From assembly GCA_046597055.1 (NCBI GenBank), contig JBKJLC010000061.1, forward strand, positions 1 to 25,844: a stretch of 25,844 bases of DNA, read 5' to 3'. Each line of letters opens with the position of its first letter. Position 1 is the first letter of the stretch. This DNA comes from Kofleriaceae bacterium (lineage in GTDB: Bacteria; Myxococcota_A; Polyangia; Haliangiales; Haliangiaceae). Under the pieces are notes generated by a model. That model was not told the DNA's origin, searched no databases, and saw nothing but the letters and a program-made list of their open reading frames with translations. This document shows, piece after piece, positions 1,038 through 22,632 of this stretch. Both the position numbers and the translations under genes were made by a program.

Positions 1038-4000
1038 TCAGGCCCGGCGCCGCCGGCGGCGGACCACCAGCGCGGCGACCAGCAGGCCGGCCGCGAGGTC
1101 CGTGCCGCGACCACCACCGGTGCTGCAGCAGCCGCCGCCGTCACCATCGGGCCCGGCCGGGTCGACCACGTCGGGGTTGCAGGCGTCGGCGTCGGCGCCC
1201 TGGACCGGGAACGGCGTGTTGGTGATGCCGACGACCTGGAGGTCGTCGATCGACCAGCCCGCCGCGCCCACACCAGCGTCGGTGCCGATGCGGAACCGCA
1301 GCCGGAAGGTCTTGCCGGCCAGCTGGGTTCCGAAGTCGAGCGTGAGCTGGTCGGTCGACGGGTACGCCGGATTGGTGCCACCGAAGGCGGTCTGGCCGCC
1401 GAGCGGGTTGCCGGACTCGCCGCCGAGCGTGGCGTTGTACGCCACCGTGGTCAGGGTCGACACGTCGGCCCAGGTCGCGCCGTCGTCGGTCGAGATCTCG
1501 ATGACGCCACCGTCGTAGTAGATGCCGTCGTCGCCGAGCTCGAACTGGAACGCGTGATTCAACACGACCGCGACCGTGCCCGGACCGGCGATCAGCGCCG
1601 GCGACACCAGCATCGTGTCGCTGGTGGTGCCGAGGTCGGCGCCATGCCAGTAACGATCGAGCGCGGTGGTCGACGCGAGCTTCCACGCGACCGTCGCGTC
1701 CTCCCCCGTCGGGGTCCACGGCGAACCCGCCGCGTCCATGCTGTCGGTCGCCGACGCCGCGGCCTGGTCGTCGGCCGCGAGCCGGACCGGCATCGCGATC
1801 GACCGGGTCTCGGTGCAAGCACCCGGCGAGGCGATGGTGACGTCCAGCATGCCGGCGGCCGGGCCGGTCGCGGCGTCGAGGCGGACCTGGAAGGTCGCGG
1901 TCGCGCTGGCATACGGCGCCAGCGCTGCGATCGAGACCGGCGCGGTGACGACGGTGAGCCCCGGCGTCGTGGTCGCGACCGTGACGGTCAGGTTGGCCAG
2001 CGCCGCGGCGCCCGAGTTGACGACCGGGACGGTGATGGTCGCGGTCTCGCCGACGTCGAGGGTGCTGTCTTCGTCGCAGTCGGTCACGTCGACCGCCAGG
2101 CTGGTAACCCCGGTGGCAGCGTGGCCCCTGACGTCGAAGCTCTCGACGGTGCCGAGGAAGTCGTCGGAGGTCCGCGCCGGCGACACCGCGCACGAGCCGA
2201 GGCCACGCCGCGCGAAGGCCGCGGCCAGGACGGTGTGGTCGGCCGGGCTCGCCGCCTGGGTCGCCGCCAGGATGGAGTCACGGATCTCGGTGAAGGTCCC
2301 GTCCGGAGGTGCCATCAAGAGGCCACCGACGATGTAGCGCATCATCTTGCGGCGGACTTCGTCGAAGGTCGCGGTGCCGCGCTCCTGCTGGAGCGCGATG
2401 TAGCCCTCCCACAAGATGGTCGCCCACACCTCGCCGGCGTTGTGAACCTCCGAGTTGGGGCCGCCGCCCGAGGTCGGGTGGCTGGTCGGCAAGGGCACGC
2501 CATCGGCGACCATGCCGAACGTCACGGCGTTCTTTCGCAGATCGGTCGAGTACGGCACCCGGCGGATGCCGAAGTACGGGTCGCCGTTGAAGGCGTAGCC
2601 GCTGAGCGAGTAGACCCCGGCCAGGTTGTCGCCGGACCGCGCCATCATGTGCATGGCGAGGAAGTCGGCCCAGCCCTCGCTCATCCCGCCGCACTGCGCG
2701 GTGCCGCACAGGCTCAGGCGGTGGTGCAGGTAGTGGCCGAACTCGTGGGCGACCAGGCCGCCGTCGAGCGCGCCGTCCGACTCCACGCCAACCCGGCGGT
2801 GCATGACCATGGACACCGCGCCCGCGGTGAGGTCCGCGCGCAGCGCGACGCCGTCGTCGTAGCCGACCGACATCGCCGGGATCGTGATCGCGTCGGTGAT
2901 CGCGGTGTCGTTGGGCAGCCCCGGCGCCGGGCTGTTGACGACGTTGTGCGCGATAACCACGCCGACCGCGCCGGCGGTCTGGGCGTTGAGCGCCTTGCGC
3001 TTGCCGGTGCAGTTGCCACGCTCGAGCAAGACGATCTTGCCGGCGACCGCGGCCGCGTTGGTCAGCGCCTCGCAGCCGTCGCCCATCGAGACGCCGGTGC
3101 CGTCGGTGCCGAGCACCAGGTCGTCGGTGAGATCGTAGTTGGGCGGACCGTAGGACGCGGGGCGCGTGGCCGGGACTCGGTTGGTCGGCTGCACCGTGAG
3201 GGTGCGGTCCTCTGCGCCGCTCCACAGGTAGACCTGCATGCGGGGCGCCATGCCGTCGTCGGGCGTCGACATGTTGGCGTTGTTGCGGTTGCCCGCGTTG
3301 GCGCCGTCCTGGGCCTCGGCGCGAAGGGCGTCGCCGCCGGTCCCGCCACGCCCGAAGTTGTTGACCTGGCCATTGCCCGCCGCCTCGGTGAAGCCCGCGT
3401 CGTACCAGTCATCGTGCAGCCAGTTGATGCTGTAGAAGAGCTGGGTGATCGCGGCCTGCTGCTGCGCGTTCGAGGCGATCGGGCTGACCGCCGTGTCGTA
3501 GACGCGGTCGAAATTGCCGGCCGAGGTGACCGAGGCGCGGAAGTCGCCCTCGCTCAGGCCGGTCGGCGAGTTGATGTCGGTGTACGCGTCGACGTTGTTG
3601 CCGGTGGTCTCGGTGGCGTCGTCGGTCAGCCACGGGTCGGGGGTGCCGCCGCCCCGGTTGTTGAGGCCGGTGACCGAGATCAGCGACGGGGCGACGAACG
3701 GCGGGCGCGCCGCGCCGGGCGTGCCGCTCGGGTGCGGCGAGAAGTCGGAGACCGGACCGTCCCACGGGCGGTAGTCGGCGGTGGTGTCGGCCCACACGCG
3801 GTAGTTGAAGGCATCGACGGTGAGGTCGCGCCGGGCCAGCACCCGCCCGTCACGCGCGCCGATCACCATGCGATAGGCGAGCCCATCGGTGGAGTCGTCG
3901 CTCGAGGTGTAGGCCTCGACGACCCACGCCGGCACCAGCGCGTTGCCATCGCGGTGCCACAGCTTGCGGGCGCGAGCCTCCTCGACAGCCACGTCGGCGA

Positions 4001-4625
4001 CCTGGCCCTGGAACCAGGCGACGTCGTCGGTGGTGCGGGCGCCAGCCGCAGCCGGGCGCGCGCGCAGGCCGGCGCTGATGTCGACGCCATGCAGCTCGTG
4101 GATCGCGCGGGCGACCGCGGCGGCAGCGTCGAGCTTGAAGCCGGTACGATCGCGCGCGATGTCGGCCGGGACCACGGTGCCGGCCGCGGCGACCAGCGAC
4201 CCGCCGGGGCCGACCAGGACCCGCAGCTCACCGGCGTCGACGGTCACGCCGTCGATCGCCTGGCGCAGCCGCACGATGCTGCCGCCGCCGACCGCGACGG
4301 TCGCCAGCGGGGTCAGCTCGGCGGTGCCACCGGGCGCGCCCCACGCCGGCGCGAGCCGGCCGACCAGGGTGACCGCCGAGGCGGCCGGGGTGGCGGCGGG
4401 CGCCGCCGGGACGCTGCCACCGCGCCAGAGGCGGGCAACCGCCTCGGTGGTGCCTGAAGCGGCGCTCGTCATCGGAACGGCAACGCCGACCGGTTCGGCC
4501 GTCCGCGTCGGTGCGGTGTCAGCGCATGCGACCAGCGCTCCTGCCGTCAGGCCGGACGTCCACAACCCCAGAAAGCGACGCAAGTTTCCGCGAGTTCTCA
4601 TCGGGTGCGACGATACACGTCCCAT
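1038..4625 (-). CDS. M36 (fungalysin-like) metallopeptidase with PA domain and MYXO-CTERM sorting signal
   Basis: HEFGH zinc motif followed by GGMSEGWADF, GIRRVPYS and EVHNAGEVW; PA insert (GKIVLLERGNC...AQTAGAVGVVI); C-terminus GCCSTG, hydrophobic helix, RRRRRR. Start could be 4625 or 4601. Confidence 0.9.
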   Translation of the reverse strand: MGRVSSHPMRTRGNLRRFLGLWTSGLTAGALVACADTAPTRTAEPVGVAVPMTSAASGTTEAVARLWRGGSVPAAPAATPAASAVTLVGRLAPAWGAPGGTAELTPLATVAVGGGSIVRLRQAIDGVTVDAGELRVLVGPGGSLVAAAGTVVPADIARDRTGFKLDAAAAVARAIHELHGVDISAGLRARPAAAGARTTDDVAWFQGQVADVAVEEARARKLWHRDGNALVPAWVVEAYTSSDDSTDGLAYRMVIGARDGRVLARRDLTVDAFNYRVWADTTADYRPWDGPVSDFSPHPSGTPGAARPPFVAPSLISVTGLNNRGGGTPDPWLTDDATETTGNNVDAYTDINSPTGLSEGDFRASVTSAGNFDRVYDTAVSPIASNAQQQAAITQLFYSINWLHDDWYDAGFTEAAGNGQVNNFGRGGTGGDALRAEAQDGANAGNRNNANMSTPDDGMAPRMQVYLWSGAEDRTLTVQPTNRVPATRPASYGPPNYDLTDDLVLGTDGTGVSMGDGCEALTNAAAVAGKIVLLERGNCTGKRKALNAQTAGAVGVVIAHNVVNSPAPGLPNDTAITDAITIPAMSVGYDDGVALRADLTAGAVSMVMHRRVGVESDGALDGGLVAHEFGHYLHHRLSLCGTAQCGGMSEGWADFLAMHMMARSGDNLAGVYSLSGYAFNGDPYFGIRRVPYSTDLRKNAVTFGMVADGVPLPTSHPTSGGGPNSEVHNAGEVWATILWEGYIALQQERGTATFDEVRRKMMRYIVGGLLMAPPDGTFTEIRDSILAATQAASPADHTVLAAAFARRGLGSCAVSPARTSDDFLGTVESFDVRGHAATGVTSLAVDVTDCDEDSTLDVGETATITVPVVNSGAAALANLTVTVATTTPGLTVVTAPVSIAALAPYASATATFQVRLDAATGPAAGMLDVTIASPGACTETRSIAMPVRLAADDQAAASATDSMDAAGSPWTPTGEDATVAWKLASTTALDRYWHGADLGTTSDTMLVSPALIAGPGTVAVVLNHAFQFELGDDGIYYDGGVIEISTDDGATWADVSTLTTVAYNATLGGESGNPLGGQTAFGGTNPAYPSTDQLTLDFGTQLAGKTFRLRFRIGTDAGVGAAGWSIDDLQVVGITNTPFPVQGADADACNPDVVDPAGPDGDGGGCCSTGGGRGTDLAAGLLVAALVVRRRRRRA

Positions 4626-6187: not shown

Positions 6188-6823
6188 TCAGCCCGCGCGG
6201 TCGAGCTTGGCTGGCGTCGGCTGACGATGGATCACGATGAGCTCGGCGGCGTCGCGCAGCAGATCGACCCGGTTGATCTGCACCCGGATCACCTCGAACC
6301 CGAGACGCGCGGTGAGGTCGGCATGGAGCGCCTGCTCCTTGCCGGGGTGGAGCAGCGACAGGTTGTCGTACAGGAACGGGGTCGAGCCCTGCCGGCGCGC
6401 CGACGGTGTCAGCTCGAGCAGCGCGGTGATCCCGACGATCATGCCGTTGACCAGCAGCAGCTCGGCGGCGCTGACCTTGCGGTTGGCGACGCCGTTCAGG
6501 ATGCCGAGCCCGATCATGATGAACAGGTAGGTCAGATCGCGCATCCGGATCTCCTCGGTCCGGTAGCGCAGGATCCCGAACACCGCGAACAACCCGAGCG
6601 CGAAGCCGAGCTCCATCGGCACCTTGCGCAGGAGCACGCACATCGAGAACGTCATCAGGTTGAAGACGAAGTACGTGAAGACGAACTCGCGGTTCTTGTA
6701 GATCCGGTAGTAGACCGCGAGGATCACGAGCGACGCGAACCCGAGGTTGACCCCCAGTCGCGAGACCAGCTTGAGGAAGTCGCCGACGTCGATGAAGTTT
6801 TCGGTTCCCAGCAGCTCGTTCAC
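6188..6823 (-). CDS. DUF4956 domain-containing membrane protein
   Basis: GFALGLFAVFGILRYRTEEI...DLTYLF motif; directly downstream of a VTC-domain gene, its usual partner. Confidence 0.85.
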   Translation of the reverse strand: MNELLGTENFIDVGDFLKLVSRLGVNLGFASLVILAVYYRIYKNREFVFTYFVFNLMTFSMCVLLRKVPMELGFALGLFAVFGILRYRTEEIRMRDLTYLFIMIGLGILNGVANRKVSAAELLLVNGMIVGITALLELTPSARRQGSTPFLYDNLSLLHPGKEQALHADLTARLGFEVIRVQINRVDLLRDAAELIVIHRQPTPAKLDRAG

Positions 6824-6825
6824 GC

Positions 6826-7617
6826 CTACCTTCTTTCGATCGCCCGCAGGTCGGCCAGCAGGCGGTTGCGCGGCAGCGCCGGATTCAGCATCGCGGTCGC
6901 GACCGTGTACTTGCTCATCGAGCGCTCGCGCAGGCCGGCGTCCTGGATCGCGCGCATCACCGGCGTCCGCGACGAGTACGGCGCCTGCTTGACCTCGATC
7001 ACGACCAGCTCGTCGAAGCCCCAGCGCGCGCCGCCGAGCTCGTGCGCCATGAGGCCGAGGTCGATGGTCACCCGCTCGTTGTCGGCAAGCCCGACCAGGC
7101 TCACCCGCTGGAAGTCGATCCGCATGATGGGCTGCAGCGCGTCGACCGGCAGGGTCATGCGGGTACGCAAGAAGGCGAGCTCGGCCGGCCCCAGCTGCTC
7201 CTCGCCGTAGCGCAGCGGCATCCGCCCCTTGTCGGTCACCAGCTCGTTGCGCTTGGTCTTGACCTCGAGAAAGCTCAGCTCGCGATCCGGGTAGTGGCGG
7301 ATTCGGATCTTGTGGCGGATCCGCCGGCCGCGGCGGTGATCGTGGAAGCAGACCCGGTCGGGGGTGTCGAAGTAGAGGCTGCGGTAATGGGCGACGTTGC
7401 CCGACGGCACCGGCAGCGCCTCATAATGAGGGAGCATGGGCTCGATCAACCCGAGCACCTGCCGCGCGTCGGCGACGAACTTGGTGTCGACCCGGCGCAG
7501 CAGGTCGCGGCCACGCGACAGCTCGAGCGAGGCGGTCGCGAACCGGTTGGCCGCGGCCGCGACCAGGCCGGTCAGCTCGCCGGGCGCGGCGCTGGGGGCC
7601 CGGGTGCGGAGGCTCAT
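6826..7617 (-). CDS. Polyphosphate polymerase (VTC/CYTH-like) domain protein
   Basis: LLRRVDTKF, YRSLYFDTPD, RHKIRIRHY, FLEVKTK, ERVTID, VIEVK and SKY motifs. ATG at 7617 preferred over the upstream start. Confidence 0.85.
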   Translation of the reverse strand: MSLRTRAPSAAPGELTGLVAAAANRFATASLELSRGRDLLRRVDTKFVADARQVLGLIEPMLPHYEALPVPSGNVAHYRSLYFDTPDRVCFHDHRRGRRIRHKIRIRHYPDRELSFLEVKTKRNELVTDKGRMPLRYGEEQLGPAELAFLRTRMTLPVDALQPIMRIDFQRVSLVGLADNERVTIDLGLMAHELGGARWGFDELVVIEVKQAPYSSRTPVMRAIQDAGLRERSMSKYTVATAMLNPALPRNRLLADLRAIERR

Positions 7618-9333: not shown

Positions 9334-10467
9334 ATGCCTGCCGCGGTCGCAACGCTCCTCGCCGATCTCATCGCCTACCGCACGCACCACGCCGCCAATC
9401 CGGCCGACGCGGGCGACGAGCTCGCGCTGTGCCGCTACCTCGCGCCGCTCCTGCTCGCCCGCGGCGCCGACGAGGTCACCGTGGTCGAGACCGGACGCCG
9501 CGCCGGCGGCCCCGGCGGCTACGTCGTCGCCCGCTGGGGCCAGCCGCGCCTGCTGGTCAACTCGCACCTCGACACCGTCCCGGCCAACACCGGCTGGTCG
9601 CGCGACCCGTGGACGCCCGCGATCGTCGACGGCCGCGTGTACGGCCTGGGCTCCGCCGACACCAAGGGCGCCATCGCCGCGATCCTCACCGCGCTCGAGC
9701 GGGTGACCCCGCGCGACGTCGCGGTGGTGTTCTCCGGCGACGAGGAGCGCGGCACTGCCGCCATCCACCACTTCCTCGACTCGGCGTCGCCGGCCCGCGT
9801 CAGCCTCGAGCGCGCGATCGTGTGCGAGCCGACCACCCGGCGCGCGGGCATCCGCCACCGCGGCGTGCTGTCGTACCGCGCGCACGTCACCGGCCGCGGC
9901 GGCCACTCGTCGAAGGCCGATCACATGCCGGCGCCGATCGTCACCATGGCGCGGCTCGCGCTCGCGCTGCACGCGCTCGGCGTCGAGCACCGGACCGCCG
10001 GGCCCGCCGGCATGACCGGCGTGTGCATGAACGTGGCGGCGCTCGACGGCGGTGTCGCCTTCAACGTGGTCCCCAACACCGCCACCCTGTCGTGGTCGAT
10101 CCGGCCCTGGCCCGGCTTCGATCGCCAGGCGTGGGAGCGCCGCCAGGACGCCGCGGCGGCCGCCGCCTCGGTCGAGCACGCGGGCCCGCCGATCACGATC
10201 GAGCCGATCGTCGTCCACGACCCGTTCGGGTGCGACGACGCCCAGCTGGCGGCCCTGGTCCGCGATCACGCGACCGCGCTGGTCGCGCTCGACTTCTGGA
10301 CCGAGGCCGCGCTGTACCAGGAGGCCGGGCTGGCCGCGATCGTGATCGGGCCCGGCGACATCGCCCAGGCCCACGCCGCCGACGAGTGGGTCGCGATCGA
10401 CGATCTGACCTGGGCGGTCGACCTGTTCGCGAGCGTCTTCGAGGCGAGCCGTGCCGCCGGCGCGTGA
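9334..10467 (+). CDS. argE: M20 family peptidase, acetylornithine deacetylase-like
   Basis: SHLDTVP, GLGSADTKG, GDEE, CEPT, GGHSS and GPGDIAQAHAADEW motifs; adjacent to an arginine-pathway NAGS-like gene. Confidence 0.8.
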   Translation: MPAAVATLLADLIAYRTHHAANPADAGDELALCRYLAPLLLARGADEVTVVETGRRAGGPGGYVVARWGQPRLLVNSHLDTVPANTGWSRDPWTPAIVDGRVYGLGSADTKGAIAAILTALERVTPRDVAVVFSGDEERGTAAIHHFLDSASPARVSLERAIVCEPTTRRAGIRHRGVLSYRAHVTGRGGHSSKADHMPAPIVTMARLALALHALGVEHRTAGPAGMTGVCMNVAALDGGVAFNVVPNTATLSWSIRPWPGFDRQAWERRQDAAAAAASVEHAGPPITIEPIVVHDPFGCDDAQLAALVRDHATALVALDFWTEAALYQEAGLAAIVIGPGDIAQAHAADEWVAIDDLTWAVDLFASVFEASRAAGA

Positions 10468-11608
10468 GCACGACGGCACCGAGGCCGGCGACCTGGTCCT
10501 GCGCTTCCTGTCGAGCATCGGCCGCCCGGCCGAGGCCCAGCAGTACCTCGACCTGTTCCGCGGCGAGCACCCCGAGCGGTTCGCGATCGTGCACGTCGCC
10601 GACGCGGTCGTGCGGCAGGCCGCCGACGCGCTCGCGGTCGAGCTGCGCTACCTGGTCGAGCTGGGCCTGACGCCGGTGGTCGTGTTCGGCGCGGTCGAGC
10701 CGCGCGGCGCGGCCCGCGCCGCCGACCGCATGTTCGACGCGCTCGGGCCGGTGCCGGCGCTGCGGGTCCCCGCCTCGGCCGACGCGATCGCGCCGGTGGT
10801 CCGCGCCGACGTGCTGCCGCTGGTGACCCTCGACCGCGAGGAGGGCGGCCCTGACGGCCGGTTCGACGTGCTGGCCGAGCTCGCCGGCGCGCTCGGCACC
10901 CGCAAGCTGGTGATGGTGACCCGACGCAGCGGGTTCCAGCCAGCCGGCGGCCGGGTGGTCTCGATGATCGACCTCACCGCCGAGCCACACTGGCTGGCGC
11001 CGGGTGGCTTGCCGGCCGATCCCCAGAAGCTGCTGCGCCAGATCGGGCGCGTGCTCGACCGGGTACCGCACCGCATGACGGTCAGCGTCACCTCGCCGCT
11101 CGACCTGCTGCGCGAGCTGTTCACGGTGAAGGGCGCCGGCACCCTGGTCCGCCGCGGCTCGCAGATCGTCCGCCACCGGTCGTGGGATCAGGTCGACCGC
11201 GATCGCCTGGTCGCGCTGGTCGAGGAGTCGTTCGGCCGCCCGCTGGTGCCCGGGTTCGACAGCCGCCCGGTGCTCGCGGTCTACGTCGCCGACGAGTACC
11301 GCGGCGCCTCGGTGGTGACGCCGGCGCCGCTCGCGCCGTACCTGTCGAAGTTCGCGGTCGGCACCGTGTCGCGCGGCGAGGGCGTCGGCAGCGATCTGTG
11401 GCGCGCCATGACCGCCGACTTCCCGCGGCTGTTCTGGCGCAGCCGCGCCGGCAACTCGATCACGTCGTGGTACCGCGAGAACTGCGACGGCATGGCGCGC
11501 ATCCAGCTCGATGGTGACGACTGGTGGGTGCTGTGGCGCGGGCTGGCGCCGCTCGAGATCGCGCCAGCGATCGACTACTGCCGCGCGACGCCCGCCGACT
11601 TTGCCTGA
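10451..11608 (+). CDS. AAK-like plus NAT (DUF619) domain protein; probable N-acetylglutamate synthase of the NAGS/K type
   Basis: N-terminal LSSIG...E.QQYL..F, linker LLRELFT.KGAGTLVRRG, NAT motifs PYLSKFAV...RGEGVG..LW and LFWRSR..N....WY. GAGG precedes the GTG, which overlaps the argE end by 17 nt. Confidence 0.75.
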   Translation: MPPAREHDGTEAGDLVLRFLSSIGRPAEAQQYLDLFRGEHPERFAIVHVADAVVRQAADALAVELRYLVELGLTPVVVFGAVEPRGAARAADRMFDALGPVPALRVPASADAIAPVVRADVLPLVTLDREEGGPDGRFDVLAELAGALGTRKLVMVTRRSGFQPAGGRVVSMIDLTAEPHWLAPGGLPADPQKLLRQIGRVLDRVPHRMTVSVTSPLDLLRELFTVKGAGTLVRRGSQIVRHRSWDQVDRDRLVALVEESFGRPLVPGFDSRPVLAVYVADEYRGASVVTPAPLAPYLSKFAVGTVSRGEGVGSDLWRAMTADFPRLFWRSRAGNSITSWYRENCDGMARIQLDGDDWWVLWRGLAPLEIAPAIDYCRATPADFA

Positions 11609-11763: not shown

Positions 11764-12678
11764 TCAGCGCGGGATGCGAGCCGGACCGCAGGTGCCCGCG
11801 GCCTTCGAGGCCATCGTGCGGTCGTAGAGATCCTTCAGGACCACGTACGCGGCATCGTTGAGCTGGGTGTTGAACGACGGGTGCTCCTGGTGCGGCACCT
11901 GACGGAGACCGACACGGGTGAAGTTCGCGTAGTTCGGGACAATCTTGGCGTTGGCCGGGTCGGCCAGGTCCACCGCGAAGTACGCCATCATGAAGTACTT
12001 GTTGGTGCTGAGCGTCTCGTACATGCCCAGGTTGTCGTCGCTGGCCTTGAAGCCGTAGGCGCCCGAGACGTGGCACTGCTCGCAGTTGCCCTGGTTGGAG
12101 CCCTTGTTGGCCCACTTCTCCCCGAAGCCGAGCTCGGTGAAGTCGGTCGCCTTGAGGCAGCCCGACCACTCGCTGATGAGGCGCCCCGTGGCCTGGGCCG
12201 GCGACTCGGCGCCGGGGGTCGGGGGCGGCATGTTCGGGTCGGTCGGCGCGGTCGCCGCGCGAACCTCTTCGGCCATCCAGGCGGTGATCTTGGTCTTCTC
12301 GTCCGCGGTGTAGGTGCGGCCGTTGTGCGGCCCCGGGTCGACCAAGGTCAGGATGGGCGCGTTGGCCGTGGTGAAGTTGCCGACCACGGAGGTGTATCCG
12401 ACCGTGGTGACGTAGGCGGTGTCGACGGTGGTCGCGACGAATGCGGTCGAGACCGCGCCGCTGATGCCGTGGCAGGGGGCGCCGCACTTGGCGCTGAGGA
12501 TGGGGAAGACGTCGCGATCGAACATCGCCTTCGCCTGTCCATTGCCTCCACCCGGGCCCGTGCCGCCCGCATCGGGTCCCGCGACGTCATCATCACCGTC
12601 GTCATCAGCCGCGGGCTCGAGCGAGCCGACACAGCCACCCGCGAACAGGAGCGCCGCGAGAAGGGTACGGTAGGACAT
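11764..12678 (-). CDS. Lipoprotein with two c-type heme-like motifs (CxxxCH and CxxCH)
   Basis: Lipobox LFAGGC; F.RDVFPIL..KCGAPCHG at 12469-12486 (motif core); CEQCH at 12070-12084; GGAGA RBS. Confidence 0.75.
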   Translation of the reverse strand: MSYRTLLAALLFAGGCVGSLEPAADDDGDDDVAGPDAGGTGPGGGNGQAKAMFDRDVFPILSAKCGAPCHGISGAVSTAFVATTVDTAYVTTVGYTSVVGNFTTANAPILTLVDPGPHNGRTYTADEKTKITAWMAEEVRAATAPTDPNMPPPTPGAESPAQATGRLISEWSGCLKATDFTELGFGEKWANKGSNQGNCEQCHVSGAYGFKASDDNLGMYETLSTNKYFMMAYFAVDLADPANAKIVPNYANFTRVGLRQVPHQEHPSFNTQLNDAAYVVLKDLYDRTMASKAAGTCGPARIPR

Positions 12679-12722: not shown

Positions 12723-14666
12723 TTAGTTGCGGCGGCGGCGGCGAGCGGTGACGGCGAGGCCGAGACCGAGCAGGAGGAGGGCGCCACCCGAGGACGAGGA
12801 CCCAGTCGAGCAGCCACCGGTCGACGAACCGAACTCGGGGTCAGACGGCTCGAGCGGGGCCGGCTCCTCGGGGGCGGGCGCGTCGGGCGTGGTGTCGCCG
12901 GGGAGGTTGTCGTTGTAGCCACCCTGCGGGTCGGGCGCGTTGGCGGTGAACGCCATCGGGAACAGGCTCAGGTACGCGGAGGGCTTGATGGCCGAGCTCT
13001 CGTGCTGGGGCGCCTTGCCGGTGAGCGCGAAGGCGGTGAAGTAGGTCACCTGGTTGCCGTTGATGCCGGCGAAGGGGTTCTTGACCAGGTCGGAGCCCGC
13101 GAAGTTACGACCCTGGTTACCGGGGTTGTTGCCGAGGTAGTTCGAGTAGAGGTGGCGGTCGTACGACGCGTTCGCGTTGTGCTGGCCGATGCTGACCATG
13201 CTCTTGGTCGCCGGGTCATACGCGATGGTGCGGATGTCGGCGTCCTGCTGGAGGCCACCGGTCTGGCTGCCCTGGAGCTGGGTGAAGCCGGGCATGAGCA
13301 GGTCGCCCTTGCCGAACAGGCCCTCGGTCATGCTGAGGTGAGTACCGTCGAGGCCGAGCAGCATGGGGCTGGTGCCCAGGTTGATGGAGGTCATCGGCAT
13401 CGAGTAGGTGAAGCCGGTGCGGGTCGCCTTGATGACGGCGAAGTTCATGATGTCGCTGCGGCCACCCTTCTTGTCGTTGTTGTTACCGCCGCGGTTGCCG
13501 GTGTCCTGGAAGATGATGTCTTCGCCGGCGACCAGGGTGCCGTCAGCAGCCTTGGTCATGATGCGAGCGTGCTGGGCGCGCATCGCGTAGTACTCGCGCT
13601 CCTCGCCATTGACCGTCAGCTTCTGGCGGTGGTTGAGGCGCTCCTTCCAGAGCAGGCGGCCATCCGCGTTCTCGCCGTTGCCGCCGCCGGCCAGGTCGAC
13701 CGCCGCGATCCAGGTGCCCTCACGCTGGGGCTGGGAGTTGCCCTCGGTCCAGGTGCAGACGGCGAACGACTTGTCGGCCCCGCCGACGGTGCAGCGACCG
13801 CGCGACCGCTCCTCGCGCTGGGCGAGCGACAGGTCGAACAGGCGGGTGATCTTGCAGCTGGTGGCGGCGCCATCGGCGCCGTTGGTGCAGTTCACCTCGG
13901 TGGCGCGGGCCCAGCCGTCGTCCCGGCCGTTGCCGTTGCCGCCGTCCCACGTGATGTAGCGGGTGACGCCGTTGGCGTCGACGTACGGAGTGCCGGCCTG
14001 GCCCGCGCCCGACTGGTGCATCGAAAGGTCGTCGTTGTTCTTCGCCATGACCAAGACCTGCTTCTGGGTCTGGCCTTGCGCGTTCTGGACCTGGACGATC
14101 TTGCCGTCCCAGTCGACGATCTTCATGTACCGCTTGGTGTCGTTCTGACCCGCCGGCTGGTAGTTGAACTCGATGGCGACGTTCTTGCCGCCATTGATGA
14201 CGAACACCTCGGGCTTGTTGCAGTTACGGTATTCATTACCGTCGTTGTCGGTGAGCCAGGTGTCGGCGGACGCGGCGGTCGGCCGGCGAACGTTCACGGC
14301 GCCGTCGGGATCCTGGAAGGTCTCGAGCGCGGTGAGCGCGCACTGCATCTGGTGAACGGGCGAGGACTCCTGCGGCGTGCCCTCGTTGATCGGGCTGGTG
14401 CGCATGTGGACGTAGATCGCCCGCTTGCCGTCCGGGCTGAACTTGACCGCGGCCTGCTCGTTCGTGAACTCCTCGTCGGTCTTGCGCAGGCGCTTGATGC
14501 CGTCCTCGCCGGTGCGGGTCGGCGCCTGGTCCTTCGTGGCCGACGCGAGGCCGATTTCGAAGGCGCGGGCCGCGCCGAGCTCGCGAGCTTCCTGGGCGGC
14601 GGCGAGGCTGGGCAGGAGGATCCCGGCCAGGGCTCCGGCGAGAATAGAGGTCTTGATCTTCGTCAT
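12723..14666 (-). CDS. Secreted MYXO-CTERM surface protein of unknown function
   Basis: Signal peptide ending LAAA; Pro/acidic linker; GGCSTG, Ser-rich spacer, LLLLGLGLAV, RRRRR tail. Confidence 0.8.
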   Translation of the reverse strand: MTKIKTSILAGALAGILLPSLAAAQEARELGAARAFEIGLASATKDQAPTRTGEDGIKRLRKTDEEFTNEQAAVKFSPDGKRAIYVHMRTSPINEGTPQESSPVHQMQCALTALETFQDPDGAVNVRRPTAASADTWLTDNDGNEYRNCNKPEVFVINGGKNVAIEFNYQPAGQNDTKRYMKIVDWDGKIVQVQNAQGQTQKQVLVMAKNNDDLSMHQSGAGQAGTPYVDANGVTRYITWDGGNGNGRDDGWARATEVNCTNGADGAATSCKITRLFDLSLAQREERSRGRCTVGGADKSFAVCTWTEGNSQPQREGTWIAAVDLAGGGNGENADGRLLWKERLNHRQKLTVNGEEREYYAMRAQHARIMTKAADGTLVAGEDIIFQDTGNRGGNNNDKKGGRSDIMNFAVIKATRTGFTYSMPMTSINLGTSPMLLGLDGTHLSMTEGLFGKGDLLMPGFTQLQGSQTGGLQQDADIRTIAYDPATKSMVSIGQHNANASYDRHLYSNYLGNNPGNQGRNFAGSDLVKNPFAGINGNQVTYFTAFALTGKAPQHESSAIKPSAYLSLFPMAFTANAPDPQGGYNDNLPGDTTPDAPAPEEPAPLEPSDPEFGSSTGGCSTGSSSSGGALLLLGLGLAVTARRRRRN

Positions 14667-14822: not shown

Positions 14823-15905
14823 TCAGAGCTCGTCGGGATCCGCAACCGGCACGTCGGCCTGGGCGACCGGACGCGACCGCAAGATGATGCTCTGCGCCTT
14901 CACCTTGTTGTCGCCGAGCTCGATGTTGCCCTTGGCCTGCGCCGAGGCCTGGAAGTACATGCCCTCGAGCTCGGCGCGGGTGAGCTTCTCTTCCCACTTC
15001 TCGCCGCGCACCACCCAGCCCTCGACCACGACCTCGACATTCACGCCCTGCGACTTCAGATAGTCGAACAGCTTCCACTGCGGCTCGCCGTCGGCGGCCT
15101 TGCGGGTCTCCGGCGGGAGGTCCTGACGCTTGATGTAGGCGGCCATCCGATCGTCGAGATAGACGCGCACGCCGCCCCGCAGAGGCGTCCCGAAGTACGG
15201 CACGCCCTCCTGCACCTCGTTATCGACGACGAACCCGACATTGCGGACCAGCTTCGGCGGTGTCTTCTCCACGTAGATCATGACGGCCGATACCTTGTCG
15301 GGTGACCGACCGTTGCCGAACCCCTCGGGGACGACCGGGAGCGCCTTCCCCGACACCATCCCGCCGAAGCGGAACAGGAAGCCCTCTGCCCGCTTGGAGC
15401 GCAGGTCCTTGCCGGTCGCGACGATCGAGTCGCTGTACTTTGGCCCGTAGACATGGACCTCCTTGATCGCCTTCAGGTCGAGCCCGATCGCCTCGAGATA
15501 CTCGGTGAAACGGTAGCGACGCTCCTTCGCCCAGCGCCAGCCAGTGTCGGTGGTGCCGTAGCGCTTGGGCGCAGACGCCTTGACCTTCAACCAGATCGGC
15601 TTGAGCGCGACCGGGAGCTCGGCGAACGAGAGCAGGCCGACGAACTTGCCGTCGACGTACACCCCGGTGTCGCGCCAGCGGTCGGCGCCGGACTTGAACT
15701 CGGCGGGGATGTAGGCTTCTTTGTCCTCGTCGACCGCCGGCGCAGGTGTGGGTGCGGGTGCCGCCGGAGCACCCACCGGCGCGACGGCGGCTTGCTGCTT
15801 GGTGGCGTCGGATTCACGCTGGCCGCACCCGACGGGAGCGAGCGCGAGGCTGAGCGTGAGAAGCGAGCGCAGGGGCCGGTGGGACCGGGTCAGGACATGG
15901 GGCAT
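14823..15905 (-). CDS. Lipoprotein with an internally duplicated domain
   Basis: GGAGGTG RBS before ATG at 15905; lipobox APVGC; Pro/Ala linker; repeats GVYVDGK...ELP / GVRVYLDDR...DLP and YRFTEYLEAIGLD / WKLFDYLKSQGVN. Confidence 0.75.
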   Translation of the reverse strand: MPHVLTRSHRPLRSLLTLSLALAPVGCGQRESDATKQQAAVAPVGAPAAPAPTPAPAVDEDKEAYIPAEFKSGADRWRDTGVYVDGKFVGLLSFAELPVALKPIWLKVKASAPKRYGTTDTGWRWAKERRYRFTEYLEAIGLDLKAIKEVHVYGPKYSDSIVATGKDLRSKRAEGFLFRFGGMVSGKALPVVPEGFGNGRSPDKVSAVMIYVEKTPPKLVRNVGFVVDNEVQEGVPYFGTPLRGGVRVYLDDRMAAYIKRQDLPPETRKAADGEPQWKLFDYLKSQGVNVEVVVEGWVVRGEKWEEKLTRAELEGMYFQASAQAKGNIELGDNKVKAQSIILRSRPVAQADVPVADPDEL

Positions 15906-16113: not shown

Positions 16114-16656
16114 ATGCGCTCGCCTTCCATGCTCTCGTGCCTTGGCCTTGGCCTCGGCTGCTCGCTGCTCGCTCTGACCACCGCGTGCGACCCAGGATCC
16201 GTCGACCAGGGCTCTCCCGGCGCCGTCGCGGACGAGCTGGTCTGCTCGGCCGCGCTCTCGATCACCGGCACGTTTGCGGTCGGAACGCCCAAGCCGGTCG
16301 GGATCAACGGCTGCTGGCCGATCGGCACCTGGACGTTCCGGGTCGCGGTCGGTGCCACCGACTGCCCGACCGCGCCGGTGCCGCTGTCCGAGTACCAGAT
16401 CCGGGTCGACCGCGACGTCGCCAGCGAGGATCCCGACTTCGCCTGGCTCTATTCGTATCTCACCGACCCGGCCGACACCCGCGCCCACATCGGCGTGACC
16501 TCGGGTGGCGGCGGGCTGTGCGAGGCCGAGGTCCTGGTGTTCTCCGCCGACGGCAAGACCGTCTGGAACATGCACCCGGCGCTGCAGGCCGACAACTCGC
16601 TCAACGGCAACGGCGACTACGAGATCCACACTGCCAACCAGGTGCCCGAGCTGTGA
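16114..16656 (+). CDS. Hypothetical lipoprotein, Cys-containing and beta-rich
   Basis: GGGGAG RBS; lipobox LTTAC; four further Cys; GC3-biased codons. Confidence 0.75.
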   Translation: MRSPSMLSCLGLGLGCSLLALTTACDPGSVDQGSPGAVADELVCSAALSITGTFAVGTPKPVGINGCWPIGTWTFRVAVGATDCPTAPVPLSEYQIRVDRDVASEDPDFAWLYSYLTDPADTRAHIGVTSGGGGLCEAEVLVFSADGKTVWNMHPALQADNSLNGNGDYEIHTANQVPEL

Positions 16657-17225
16657 AGTGGCTGGCGGTCGCGCTGGTGCTCCTCGGCGCAGCCCTCATG
16701 GCGCTGCTGTACGAGGTCCGCTCGCCCGGGCCGACCGCCGCCTCGGCCAGCGCCGCCATCGACGCTCGCCCCGTCACGCTCGCGCCGACCGGGTCGCGGG
16801 CCATCGCCGCGCCGGTCGCCGCCACCGAGGAGGCGCCGTCGCCGCCGCCGCCCGAGGAGGACGAGTCGGGCGAGCCGCCGATCGCCAAGCTCAGCGAGGA
16901 GTTCTGGAGCCGCATCGACGAGGTCTACTCGCGGCGGCTGGTCGGCCAGGCCGCTGATTGCTACCAGGGCGGCAAGGACCGCAAGCAGAAGCTCAAGCTC
17001 GCCTTCCGGTTCGAGATCGCCGGCGGCCAGATCACCGTCAGCGGCGCCCGCATCGTCGACAGCACGCTGAACGACCCCGCGCTCGAGAAGTGCATGCTCG
17101 CCGCGGTGGCGACCGCGCGGTTCTCGGATCCGCGGATGCCCGACTGGTCGAGCCCGGCCGACGAGGAGGAGACCGTCCTCATCCGTATCTCGGGGCTCAA
17201 GCGCTTCGGCGCACCGTCGCCGTGA
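16653..17225 (+). CDS. Membrane-anchored AgmX/PglI C-terminal (TonB-C-like) domain protein
   Basis: GTG overlaps the previous TGA; N-terminal TM, Pro-rich linker, then CY...KLKLAFRF.I..G.I....I..STLND..LE.C......RF. Confidence 0.65.
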   Translation: MKWLAVALVLLGAALMALLYEVRSPGPTAASASAAIDARPVTLAPTGSRAIAAPVAATEEAPSPPPPEEDESGEPPIAKLSEEFWSRIDEVYSRRLVGQAADCYQGGKDRKQKLKLAFRFEIAGGQITVSGARIVDSTLNDPALEKCMLAAVATARFSDPRMPDWSSPADEEETVLIRISGLKRFGAPSP

Positions 17226-17263: not shown

Positions 17264-19600
<2,337 letters not shown>

Positions 19601-19622
19601 CGATGACCGAGGCGTCGACCGC

Positions 19623-20879
19623 GTGAAGGGATCGTCGCCGCTGCCGGGCGTTCGCAGCTTTCCGGGCGGGCCGCGGCTGCGGGTCGCCTTTCTGGTCGGC
19701 GTCGCGGTCGCGGTGTTCTTCCTCCCGCGGTGGTGGATGGTCACCGCCGCCGCGGTCGCCATGGGCGCGGCCTGGATCGGCCTCGGCCTCGGCGCCCGCC
19801 GGCTCGGTCGCCAGCTGAAGAAGTTGGTGACGATCGGCGCCGTGATCATCGCCGGCTACGCGCTGTTCAGCGAGGATCCCCGGCTCGACGAGTGGTGGGT
19901 GCTCTCGCTCTGGCGCTGGGAGCTCGAGCTCAATGCCCACGGCGCGCTGGTCGGCCTGACCATGGCGCTGCGCATCGTGGTGGTGGTGATGGCATCGCAC
20001 GTGGCGCGCGCCGGAGACGTGCGCGCGCTGGCCGCCGGCTTCCGCGGCATCGGGATGCCGCGGCTCGCGGCCGCCGCGATCGACGTGACCCTCGCCCTGC
20101 TCGAAGGCGGCCGTGGTGGCGGTGGCGGCGGTGGTGGCGGCGGTGGCGGTGGGGGGGGTGGCGGCGGGGGTGGTGGTGGTGGCGGTGGCGGTGGCGGGGC
20201 TCGCAGCCTCAGCGGCTTCCGCGCCGGCCTGGGCCGGATCGCGCGCGGCGACGTGAGCTTCCTGGTCGCCGCGCTGCAGCGTCACCTCGGCCGCGCCGAG
20301 CAGCACCTGCACCAGGCCGACCCCGACCTGTCGCCCAGCCGGGCCCGCGACGCCGCGGCGATCGCGGCCGTCACCCTCACGATGCTCGGGATCAAGGCGG
20401 TGAAGATCCTGCCCGGCATCCCGTTCCTACCCGGGTACAAGGGGGTCCTGCTGCTGCCGCTCTACCTGGTCGCCGCGCGCATCACCCGGTCGCGCGCCGG
20501 GGCGACCCTGACCGGCCTGACCATGGGCACGGTCGCCTTCTTGCTCGGCGATGGCCGCTACGGCGTGTTCGAGATCGCGAAGCACGTCGCGCCCGGCATC
20601 GTCGTCGATCTGCTCTACGGGGTCGTGCGCCGGCTCGCCGGCCACGGGCGGGTCCGGGCGGTCATCGCCTGGTCCACGCTGGGCCTGCTCGCGGCCCTGG
20701 GAAGATTTGCCACGATCACGCTCGTCGCCCTGGCCGTGCAGCCGCCTGCGCTGGTGTATGCGGTGCTGCTGCCGGGGCTCATCGTCCACGGTATCTTCGG
20801 AGTCCTCTCGGGTCTGGTGGCCGCGCCGCTCCTGGCCGCGCTCGACCGACACGAGGGGCCCGAACGGGAGTCTCCATGA
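19623..20879 (+). CDS. Membrane protein: EcfT/CbiQ-like N-half, poly-Gly linker, ECF S-component-like C-half
   Basis: N-half RLRVAFL...GLTMALRIV...ALAAGFRGIGMP..AA resembles EcfT; ARG motif at 20241-20249; C-half of about 5-6 TM segments with GATLTGLTMGTVAFLLG and PGIVVDLL resembles S components. Confidence 0.65.
   Translation: MKGSSPLPGVRSFPGGPRLRVAFLVGVAVAVFFLPRWWMVTAAAVAMGAAWIGLGLGARRLGRQLKKLVTIGAVIIAGYALFSEDPRLDEWWVLSLWRWELELNAHGALVGLTMALRIVVVVMASHVARAGDVRALAAGFRGIGMPRLAAAAIDVTLALLEGGRGGGGGGGGGGGGGGGGGGGGGGGGGGGGARSLSGFRAGLGRIARGDVSFLVAALQRHLGRAEQHLHQADPDLSPSRARDAAAIAAVTLTMLGIKAVKILPGIPFLPGYKGVLLLPLYLVAARITRSRAGATLTGLTMGTVAFLLGDGRYGVFEIAKHVAPGIVVDLLYGVVRRLAGHGRVRAVIAWSTLGLLAALGRFATITLVALAVQPPALVYAVLLPGLIVHGIFGVLSGLVAAPLLAALDRHEGPERESP
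20115..20198 (+). repeat. GGN trinucleotide tract encoding 28 consecutive glycines; includes a G8 run at 20151-20158
   Basis: Read directly from the sequence: 84 nt of GGT/GGC/GGG codons. Confidence 0.95.
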
Positions 20880-21715
20880 CCAAGCTCGTCGGCGGCGATG
20901 GCCGCACGCACATCCAGTCACGCCTCATGCGCGAGTCACTCCAGGACAAGCGGGTCCTGGCCGGCACCACCTCCGAACGCGATCTCCAGATCATGCCCGA
21001 CGCGGTGCTGGTCGGCATCGGCGGCCAGAGCATCTTCGATCGCGGCAAGGAGGCGATCCTGCCCCTGGTCGAGGAGATCGCCGCGATCAAGAGCGAGGTC
21101 AAGATGGTGCTCGCGGTCGGCGGCGGCACCCGCGTGCGCCACACGATGTCGATCGCGCTCGACCTCGGCCTGCCGGTCGGCGGGGTCGCCCAGCTGATCG
21201 GCGCGATGGAGGAGCTCAACGCGATCCTCCTCAACGCGCTGCTCGCCAAGCACGGCTCGATGCCGATGCAGCGCGATCACTTCTGGGACCTCCCCCTCTA
21301 CTTCGCCTCGGGTATCCTGCCGATCGCGATCTCGATCCCGCCCTATCACTTCTGGGAGCCGCCGCCGGCCGACGGCTGCCTGCCGATGCACGGCAGCGAC
21401 TTCGGCCTGTTCCAGCTCGCCGAGGTGCTGTCGATGAAGCAGCTGATCTTCGTGAAGGATCAGGACGGCCTCTACGACAAGGACCCTGCGGTCCACGCCG
21501 ACGCTCGCCACATCCCGCGCATCACGCTCGACGAGCTGCTGAAGGCCAAGCTGCCGACCAACATCCTCGACGAAGAGCTGTTCCGGGCCTGGTCGACCGC
21601 CAAGAACCTGTCGCGCGTGCAGATCGTCAACGGCCTCGTGCCCGGCATGCTGTCCCGCGCGCTCCGCGGCGAGGACGTCGGCACCGTGATCACCAAGGAG
21701 CCCGCCCGTGGCTGA
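20876..21715 (+). CDS. mosA: Molybdenum storage protein alpha-like subunit (amino acid kinase/UMP kinase fold)
   Basis: ATG overlaps the upstream TGA (ATGA). N-arm HIQSRLMRESLQDK, IGGQSIFDRGKEAILPLVEE, LDLGLPVG, PPYH, VQIVNGLVPG.L.RALRGE.VGT match MoSto subunits as I recall them. Confidence 0.75.
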   Translation: MTKLVGGDGRTHIQSRLMRESLQDKRVLAGTTSERDLQIMPDAVLVGIGGQSIFDRGKEAILPLVEEIAAIKSEVKMVLAVGGGTRVRHTMSIALDLGLPVGGVAQLIGAMEELNAILLNALLAKHGSMPMQRDHFWDLPLYFASGILPIAISIPPYHFWEPPPADGCLPMHGSDFGLFQLAEVLSMKQLIFVKDQDGLYDKDPAVHADARHIPRITLDELLKAKLPTNILDEELFRAWSTAKNLSRVQIVNGLVPGMLSRALRGEDVGTVITKEPARG

Positions 21716-22511
21716 GCGTCGAGTCCTCGAGTCCTCCCTCGCCCACACCGCGCTGACCGGGTCCAGCGATCCCCACTTCGACTACCAGCCGATCGCGCTC
21801 ATGCCCGACGTGCGGGTGGTCAAGATCGGCGGCCAGAGCGTCATGGACCGCGGCCGCGCCGCGCTGTTCCCGATCCTCGACGAGCTCGTGATGGCCCGCA
21901 AGGAGGGCATCCCGGTCGTGATCCTGGTCGGCGGCGGCACCCGCGCGCGCCACATCTACTCGATCGCCAGCGAGCTCGAGATGCCGGTCGGCATCATGGC
22001 CACCCTGGGCAAGTACATCCCCATGCAGAACGCGCGCATGGTGCAGATGCTGCTCGCCAAGCACGGCGGCATCTACATCCTGCCCGACGACTTCGAGAAG
22101 CTGCCGCTGTACCTGCAGATGGGCGGCATCCCGGTCATGAGCGGCATGCCGCCGTTCGGCTACTGGGAGAAGCGCGAGGAGGGCAGCCGGATCCCGCCCC
22201 ACCGCACCGACGCCGGCGTGTTTCTGTCGGCCGAGTTCCTGGGCGCGCGCCGCGCGATCTTCATCAAGGACGAGGACGGCCTCTACACCGACGATCCCAA
22301 GAAGAACAAGGCGGCGACCCACATCCCGCGGATCTCGATCGACGAGCTGGTCGCCCGCGACCTGCCCGATCTGGTGCTCGAGCGGGTCGTGTGCGAGTAC
22401 CTGCCGCGGAGCCGCTTCTGCAAGGAAGTCCAGGTCGTCAACGGCCTGCGCCCGGGCCAGGTCCTCGAGGCCCTGCGCGGCGGCGACAACGGCACCATCA
22501 TCCACGCCTGA
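21708..22511 (+). CDS. mosB: Molybdenum storage protein beta-like subunit
   Basis: VKIGGQSVMDRGRAALFP..DE, GTRARHIYSIA, QNA.M...LLAKHG, SGMPP, IPPHRTDAG.FL.AE, KDEDGLYT.DPK, EVQVVNGL; AAGGAG RBS; 8-nt overlap with the previous gene. Confidence 0.8.
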   Translation: MAERRVLESSLAHTALTGSSDPHFDYQPIALMPDVRVVKIGGQSVMDRGRAALFPILDELVMARKEGIPVVILVGGGTRARHIYSIASELEMPVGIMATLGKYIPMQNARMVQMLLAKHGGIYILPDDFEKLPLYLQMGGIPVMSGMPPFGYWEKREEGSRIPPHRTDAGVFLSAEFLGARRAIFIKDEDGLYTDDPKKNKAATHIPRISIDELVARDLPDLVLERVVCEYLPRSRFCKEVQVVNGLRPGQVLEALRGGDNGTIIHA

Positions 22512-22550: not shown

Positions 22551-22580
22551 AAAAAAGGTGCGAGTCCTGCGACTCGCACC
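22551..22580 (-). terminator. Rho-independent terminator (possibly bidirectional)
   Basis: 10-bp perfect stem GGTGCGAGTC / GACTCGCACC, 4-nt loop, T6 tail on the minus strand; between convergent genes. Confidence 0.85.
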
Positions 22581-22632
22581 CTTCTGACGGTCACCCGGAT
22601 GGCGTGAGCCGAGGCCTCACGCCGGCGTGCGC

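Follow-up and report, generated by a model that had tools for sequence, protein, structure and literature searches.

In this work we describe a three-gene module from Kofleriaceae bacterium (assembly GCA_046597055.1, contig JBKJLC010000061.1), in which a membrane protein that joins the T and S components of an energy-coupling factor (ECF) transporter is encoded immediately ahead of two relatives of the molybdenum (Mo) storage protein MoSto. The window, i.e., the whole stretch of DNA analysed (25,844 nucleotides, nt), is one entire contig of an 8.4 Mb assembly (94% complete, 7.6% contaminated). MoSto (MosA/MosB) is a soluble molybdenum store in nitrogen fixers, and ECF transporters are defined by their ATP-binding cassette (ABC) motor. 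The module is a real, conserved variant joining these two known kinds, apparently undescribed. Our preferred explanation, held with slightly less than even confidence, is that the T-S fusion would be an ATPase-less ECF-type carrier and membrane dock, passing Mo species to an ATP-driven MoSto-like trap. The three genes and the parts of the membrane protein discussed below are the following:

19623..20879, + strand: ECF T-S fusion membrane protein of 418 amino acids (aa), EcfT-like at residues ~5-232 and with a predicted S-component fold at ~235-410
20115..20198, + strand: run of 28 Gly (residues 165-192) interrupting the T coupling region
20241..20252, + strand: lone surviving Ala-Arg-Gly-Asp motif (residues 207-210), the other EcfT motif being absent
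20325..20852, + strand: putative S-component domain, with conserved basic residues K261, K273, K320, H321, and R361 plus R312 and H389
20876..21715, + strand: MoSto-like subunit 1 (279 aa), assigned by homology and residue comparison
21708..22511, + strand: MoSto-like subunit 2 (267 aa), with intact ATP-site residues

An earlier interpretation made from the letters alone (the sequence-only reading) had proposed three overlapping genes here, and their coordinates and lengths were re-derived as it gave them, as were the two overlaps, ATGA at 20876-20879 and 8 nt at 21708-21715.

The same reading saw an ECF T and an ECF S fold in the two halves of the membrane protein, an assignment supported by profile and predicted-structure comparisons, which point to an EcfT-like half fused to a six-helix S-component half. 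Residues 17-154 match the Pfam CbiQ model weakly (E 4.8e-4, under the cut-off), and a 99-sequence family profile matches EcfT (4hzu_T) with an E value of 5e-4; at E ≤0.1, 59 of the 99 members match CbiQ, five Trep_Strep, and two ABC_cobalt. In structural comparisons of the predicted model (pLDDT 88.7), ranks 1-15 were all ECF subunits. S components took ranks 1-12 against residues ~235-415 (Z 12.4-9.5; best root-mean-square deviation, rmsd, 3.3 over 169 aligned residues) and EcfT (5d3m_D) matched residues 5-144 (Z 9.0, rmsd 3.0, 129 aligned), values to be read with the warning of the tool that Z <13 may be due to chance in helical bundles. Foldseek gave no match for the model at E ≤0.001, the best one being an S component (5edl, E 0.027, prob 1.00). 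A profile search of 1.84 billion representatives returned 271 matches, and fused proteins of ~400 residues predominate among the 150 listed. The T domain is retained in the full-length family members. T-S fusions may also occur in other ECF systems.

Compared with ECF transporters (EcfT/CbiQ with ThiT, PanT, FolT, YkoE, or CbiM), the likeness lies in a T-like N-terminal half, a six-helix S-like C-terminal half, a small-xxx-small motif in S helix 1, and one Arg-Gly motif. The differences are that T and S are here one chain scoring under the CbiQ cut-offs, that a Gly loop sits in the coupling region, that the second motif is missing, and that no EcfA/A' is present in the operon or was found in the genome. 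In the family alignment of 57 rows (motif counts use 56, one lacking the anchor pattern and being dropped), xRG[DE] is present in 52/56 and the canonical second motif in 0/56, while a distant clade of the family has the first Arg-Gly motif in 11/22 and the canonical second in 0/22 (4/26 rows dropped, also for lack of the anchor pattern). The Gly-rich run has a median of 24 residues and a range of 0-56 in 56 relatives, and in our protein the pLDDT falls below 50 at residues 170-172 and 175-194. Residues R208, G209, D210, R224, and E226 are conserved at ≥90% of the 57 rows. According to PMC3246461, both Arg-Gly motifs are ATPase contact sites in BioN.

This pattern bears on the idea that the pair replaces EcfA/A' as a motor, docking on the T coupling helices so that its ATP cycle reshapes them and resets the S domain. 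We consider it distinctly unlikely. It would agree with the lack of any ECF ATPase found (see below), with the conservation of the residues around the surviving motif, with the linkers of only ~12 residues in the largest group of natural fusions to subunit 1, and with the pairing of one active and one inactive subunit, which would match the one motif kept. On the other hand, the Arg-Gly motif decays in distant members, the pair has no conserved residues specific to the presence of the membrane partner, and MoSto is not known to undergo any large domain motion. The Gly loop of variable length also cuts the very coupling region on which such a motor would act: known ECF resetting needs two long coupling helices (PMC4820897), which are bent by closure of the ATPase dimer (PMC10368641).

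In the S half, helix 1 has the small-xxx-small motif (245/249) in 55/56 rows, with strict AxxxA in 11/56; the distant clade shows 16/22 and 4/22, respectively. According to the S-fold survey PMC11109136, this motif is characteristic of S components that dock in ECF transporters, and receptors lack it. Residues K261, K273, K320, H321, and R361 are invariant in the 57 rows. By analogy with S-component topology the conserved basic residues would face the outer pocket, and because of this placement an anionic ligand is suggested. The retained motif also counts in weighing an alternative in which nothing is imported and the T-S protein would serve as a membrane anchor, would sense molybdate outside the cell and control the pair, or would be an outward route by which stored metal reaches the exported lipoproteins. 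The S fold is used by receptors too (PMC11109136), the coupling domain has degenerated, ModABC is on hand for import, and the cluster encodes exported proteins with a sulfite-oxidase-like fold and a cytochrome; nevertheless, receptors do not have the motif kept here in nearly every row, and the T domain is kept as well, so we take this alternative to be improbable.

The absence of an ABC ATPase gene from the window, pointed out in the sequence-only reading, was confirmed, with 0/21 scanned window proteins matching the ABC family. A genome-wide search for an orphan ecfA gene yielded 82 matches to the ECF ATPase model, none of them on this contig and the best scoring 179 against a cut-off of 315, i.e., no ECF ATPase over the cut-off in an assembly that is 94% complete. 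There is no second T component in this genome, where the membrane gene is the sole CbiQ match, nor in 38/40 genomes of relatives. When the relatives were screened at E 1e-58 (only 36 candidates scored per genome), an ECF ATPase turned up in 0/57, a weak negative given that the screen missed two divergent systems, the separate ECF systems of genomes G066 and G081. Firmer are the lack of a second T component and of any look-alike ABC domain, 52 ABC domains drawn from this genome reaching at best 106 bits against the divergent ECF ATPases, compared with 144-156 among the latter themselves. Loci L192 and L193 hold separate ECF systems of this kind, whose divergent double ABC ATPases score under the TIGR04520 screen, and in L193 cobalamin-related genes follow. 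An ordinary vitamin ECF transporter, using an EcfA encoded elsewhere and with an incidental neighbourhood, could draw on the ATPases that the screen missed and on the incompleteness of the assembly. It has against it the missing second T component, the ABC domains unlike those of ECF ATPases, and the gene linkage and fusions described below, and we regard it as most improbable.

The two genes that follow the membrane gene had been called MosA/MosB-like. The kinship to MoSto stands, and the A/B naming is loose: both subunits match MosB best (E 4e-65 and 6.6e-69 for subunits 1 and 2) and MosA second (E 3.3e-47 and 3.9e-42), with UMP kinases far weaker, and both fall in clades of their own. In a tree of 30 rows, with no Azotobacter row and no outgroup, subunits 1 and 2 form separate clades (100/100 and 98/95) apart from the canonical alpha and beta subunits (95/92); a tree constrained to group subunit 1 with alpha was not rejected (p 0.104). 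Subunit 2 keeps K39, R79, R81, R166, T167, D168, K187, D188, and E189 in 57/57 rows. In subunit 1 the ATP-site Lys, whose role we take to be catalytic, is replaced by Gly, Ser, or Ala in 57/57 rows and the Arg-Thr motif is missing, so this subunit is probably non-catalytic; one deposited chain (PDB 6ris_B) has Ser at the same position.

As for the residues that hold the metal cluster (numbered as in the alpha subunit, 2ogx_A), subunit 1 keeps only the equivalent of His156 (57/57). At Glu129 it has Gln in 51/57 and Glu in 0/57, at His140 it has Tyr in 57/57, and His114 and His130 are also replaced, the last three being presumably cluster ligands too. In MoSto the cluster is bound covalently through His156 and Glu129 (PMC4504029). 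Since the set of cluster ligands is not kept, we do not class the pair as MoSto proper; judged from sequence, it appears MoSto-like by descent and by the ATP site of subunit 2. Like MoSto of Azotobacter vinelandii (PDB 2ogx, 4f6t, 6gu5), it consists of two adjacent paralogous subunits of amino-acid-kinase fold and often lies beside modABC. In contrast, both canonical subunits have the ATP-site Lys, the host here yielded no nifH in a search of its genome, and the pair comes with a membrane protein, encoded next to it or joined to it in one chain, which is not so in the two Azospirillum regions examined. Given the nifH result, a link to nitrogenase was rejected.

The linkage between the membrane gene and the pair extends to many myxobacteria and some other bacteria. 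We surveyed the best 80 of 139 genome loci, to which the counts per 80 loci given below refer unless the distant clade is named; genomes and loci are kin and not independent, and the counts show conservation and are not a statistic. Subunit 1 starts within 600 nt of the membrane gene in 75/78 loci with at least 300 nt of downstream sequence, and in the three exceptions and the two loci without room the pair is found elsewhere in the genome (5/5). Conservation of the membrane gene beside a mosAB-like pair, proposed earlier as a check by neighbourhood survey, is thus borne out. Among 301 genomes sampled from the phylum, the pair is present in 19 and the T-S fusion in 12, all of them among those 19. 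In a 400-genome sample of the phylum of another genome (G331), the pair was found in the centre genome only (1/401).

The strongest new evidence for the linkage is a set of natural one-chain proteins that continue from T and S into subunit 1. These are P0270-P0275 (6/8 of the longer relatives of subunit 1), P0178, and the ORFs (open reading frames) of two Eremiobacteraeota loci (L074 and L076), one of which breaks off inside subunit 1. By identity they form three groups (~75-95%, ~60%, and ~35% alike). Tethering of the storage pair by the membrane protein, which the sequence-only reading had envisaged, is backed by these fusions. A further single sequence, P0269, is an apparent fusion of both storage-like subunits with a shifted C-terminus and may be an artefact.

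The genes around the module have a recurrent molybdenum flavour, in agreement with the ligand class suggested in the sequence-only reading: mod genes lie near the pair and also near the T-S genes of the distant clade. After or near the pair we found modA in 28/80, modB in 25/80, and modC in 23/80 loci. For the distant clade, where the best 80 of 308 metagenome loci were used, the values were 42/80, 39/80, and 33/80, with modA or modB in 44/80 and storage genes in 19/80; when only loci of ≥5 kb are considered, modA/B or the pair is present in 34/45. Six loci of this clade (L128, L130, L144, L159, L168, and L179) carry genes for a large WD40 protein and RND efflux beside T-S, modABC, and a canonical-order pair, and in L130 an ArsB-like permease gene lies between these genes. 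In the host genome modBC is encoded on another contig (L191 5568-7015, G000:C46) with no adjacent modA, and a search for ModA in this assembly found none. We considered whether the system replaces ModA and rejected it, since 36/41 relatives hold ModA and incompleteness of the assembly is likelier.

The proximity to modABC could also mean that the T-S fusion borrows the molybdate ATPase ModC, or that it assists ModABC as a unit for high-affinity capture. The distant-clade gene is often directly upstream of modABC, one ModC-T-S fusion exists (P0195), and in one genome (G294) the order is pair, modB-like, modC-like, and T-S fusion. Yet P0195 is a single sequence on a 2.6 kb contig and may be a gene-calling artefact, while the fusions to subunit 1 recur; besides, modBC is on another contig in this genome and ModC has a membrane partner of its own. 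We find this quite improbable.

Three genes for exported proteins lie 3.7-7.9 kb upstream in the window, on the other strand:

14823..15905, - strand: lipoprotein-like protein with two predicted sulfite-oxidase/PruR-like domains and no conserved Cys, from its model and structural matches
12723..14666, - strand: exported protein with a C-terminal membrane-anchor-like tail, upstream in 34/51 loci with 6 kb of room
11764..12678, - strand: dihaem cytochrome c lipoprotein, with cytochrome c matches, upstream in 36/51 loci

All three are found upstream together in 33/51 loci with 6 kb of room, and they stay with the pair even where the membrane gene has been lost. Possibly they are a surface module for redox or pterin handling. 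The cytochrome has invariant C20/C24/H25, H73, C154/C157/H158, and H221 in 49 rows. For the protein at 12723-14666 no PDB profile match to its fold was obtained and the atlas leads were all <0.9; its tail is presumably of the MYXO-CTERM kind. The lipoprotein occurs upstream in 35/51 loci with room and in 10/301 genomes, every one of which belongs to the 19 pair genomes. For its model (pLDDT 90.8) the top 10 structural matches are all chains of the sulfite-oxidase family or of the pterin-binding PruR. The matches to PruR have Z 7.9 (rmsd 2.9, 100 aligned) and Z 7.7 (rmsd 2.7, 96 aligned) and those to sulfite-oxidase cofactor domains Z 9.0 (rmsd 6.0, 117 aligned), Z near 8 being middling by the tool's own note. 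Foldseek found no match at E ≤0.001, the atlas lead was PF00174 at 0.87, and none of the 37 members had a Pfam match to a family of this type. The likeness to PruR and the sulfite-oxidase cofactor domains is in the fold, whereas the lipoprotein differs in its tandem domains, in having no Pfam match, and in the lack of a conserved Cys (13/37 in the most conserved Cys column).

These proteins raise the alternative of cofactor salvage, in which the molybdenum cofactor, molybdopterin, or some other pterin would be the ligand. It would be gathered by the PruR-like lipoprotein, admitted by a TonB-dependent receptor in some species, and imported by the S domain, and the kinase-fold pair would trap it by phosphorylation or strip and store the metal. 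A TonB-dependent receptor gene is present in 14/80 loci, moeA genes lie upstream in one (L111), the nearest S folds bind vitamins, folate included, there would be no redundancy with ModABC, and the host has molybdoenzyme genes (7 PF00384 and 5 PF02738 matches). The resemblance of the lipoprotein, which has no conserved Cys, to PruR and cofactor domains would fit as well, but the structural scores are middling, the lipoprotein is missing from many of the loci with room and from nine of the 19 pair genomes, it remains beside the pair in genomes that have lost the membrane gene, and the distant clade adjoins modABC instead. Taken as a whole, and for both the route and the end proposed, we judge salvage to be unlikely.

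An ATPase-less carrier feeding a membrane-held trap fits best with the degenerate coupling domain, the lack of any ECF ATPase found, the retained S-T docking motif, and the fusions to subunit 1. In this carrier-and-trap explanation the S domain would bind an anionic Mo or tungsten (W) species on the outer face, in its basic pocket, and would topple against the T domain to which it is tethered, with no ABC motor involved. The ligand would be handed to the pair held at the inner face, where subunit 2 would spend ATP to capture and condense the metal, presumably within a cage, with subunit 1 as a non-catalytic membrane-side partner. The ATP-driven sink would give the uptake its direction (facilitated diffusion with trapping), and in species without the one-chain fusion to subunit 1 the separate proteins would be in contact too. 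A precedent is BtuM with BtuR, an ATPase-free S component for which facilitated diffusion and metabolic trapping are the authors' hypothesis (PMC6072759). There, too, an S fold without an ECF module adjoins an ATP-using enzyme able to trap the substrate, and BtuM, a solitary B12 S component, matches our membrane model with Z 8.2 (rmsd 4.0, 166 aligned); in contrast, BtuM lacks a T domain and has another ligand, and the trapping partner here is a MoSto relative, sometimes fused.

Several observations weigh against this explanation. The assignment of Mo or W as ligand would come from gene context. ModA is present in 36/41 and ModB in 38/41 genomes with the system, so a plain molybdate importer looks redundant. 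In the distant clade, mod and storage genes are both missing from 11/45 loci of ≥5 kb. In one genus the pair has outlived the membrane gene with its conserved residues intact: three genomes that lack the membrane gene retain the pair together with the three upstream genes, only 3/107 and 3/115 conserved columns differ, and no interface signature was found in the pair of these genomes. Four more genomes in the 301-genome sample have a canonical-order pair with no membrane-gene neighbour, followed by modA/B/C-like genes in 3/4 and by a modC-like gene in 1/4, and in the two regions examined from Azospirillum the pair is likewise in canonical order and has no T-S neighbour. Finally, of the two covalent cluster ligands, His156 is kept and Glu129 is lost. 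Overall, the dedicated Mo/W module of the sequence-only reading fared well in its folds, kinship, linkage, lack of an ATPase found, molybdenum context, and tethering, and was loose in the A/B naming. Of the three outcomes that it had named as refuting it, none came up.

It also had the gene trio end at a terminator hairpin, which we could not sustain. Two small features flank the module:

22551..22586, - strand: strong hairpin with its U-run on the minus strand, a likely terminator of the convergent gene, perhaps bidirectional
19597..19626, + strand: ORF of nine codons, sharing nucleotides with both the glnS stop and the GTG start codon of the membrane gene

The stem-loop (22557-22580) has A6 at 22551-22556 on the + strand and a z of -4.74 for the minus-strand segment. 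Because its U-run is on the minus strand, it fits better as the putative terminator of the convergent DUF6748 gene than as that of the trio. For the latter, the + strand tail is U-poor and a terminator scan gave no site there. The 9-codon ORF may be a translational relay, or may reflect a small indel at the N-terminus of the membrane protein; in one relative (L004) the start of the membrane gene sits right at the glnS stop. The glnS gene (17267-19600, +), a glutamine-tRNA ligase with a YqeY/GatB tail, is local context, since it is upstream in only 6/80 related loci. Two small exported proteins without a Pfam match (16114-17225, +) are encoded near the cluster in 6/80 and 8/80 loci and are also present in the three genomes without the membrane gene, and genes for an M20 peptidase (ArgE-like) and an N-acetylglutamate-synthase-like protein (9334-11608, +) are upstream in 7/80 and 9/80. 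Farther away are a VTC-domain gene and a DUF4956 membrane gene (6188-7617, -), a pair that we presume to be linked to polyphosphate metabolism, and a fungalysin-family (M36) metallopeptidase with a PA domain and a C-terminal anchor-like tail (1038-4625, -).

A literature search that did not cover the majority of subscription papers, key ones on MoSto and ECF genomics among them, found no paper linking MoSto to an ECF protein. In the S-fold survey PMC11109136, the main text has neither "molybd" nor "CbiQ", and five terms are absent from three supplementary files, with one scanned file unsearchable. An ECF unit without ABC ATPases, driven by a kinase-fold MoSto-like ATPase acting on the coupling helices and loading Mo or its cofactor into a membrane-bound store, would be a new class of primary transporter, a prospect that we consider doubtful. 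A natural single-chain T-S protein is a way to ask whether toppling needs ATP or dissociation, the one-chain fusions with subunit 1 are ready test objects, and recovery of Mo or W is a possible use. Found in hosts that lack nitrogenase, a conserved and sometimes fused pairing of an ATPase-less ECF protein with a relative of MoSto would extend the ECF family to a further class of substrate and would show how a metal store can load at the membrane.

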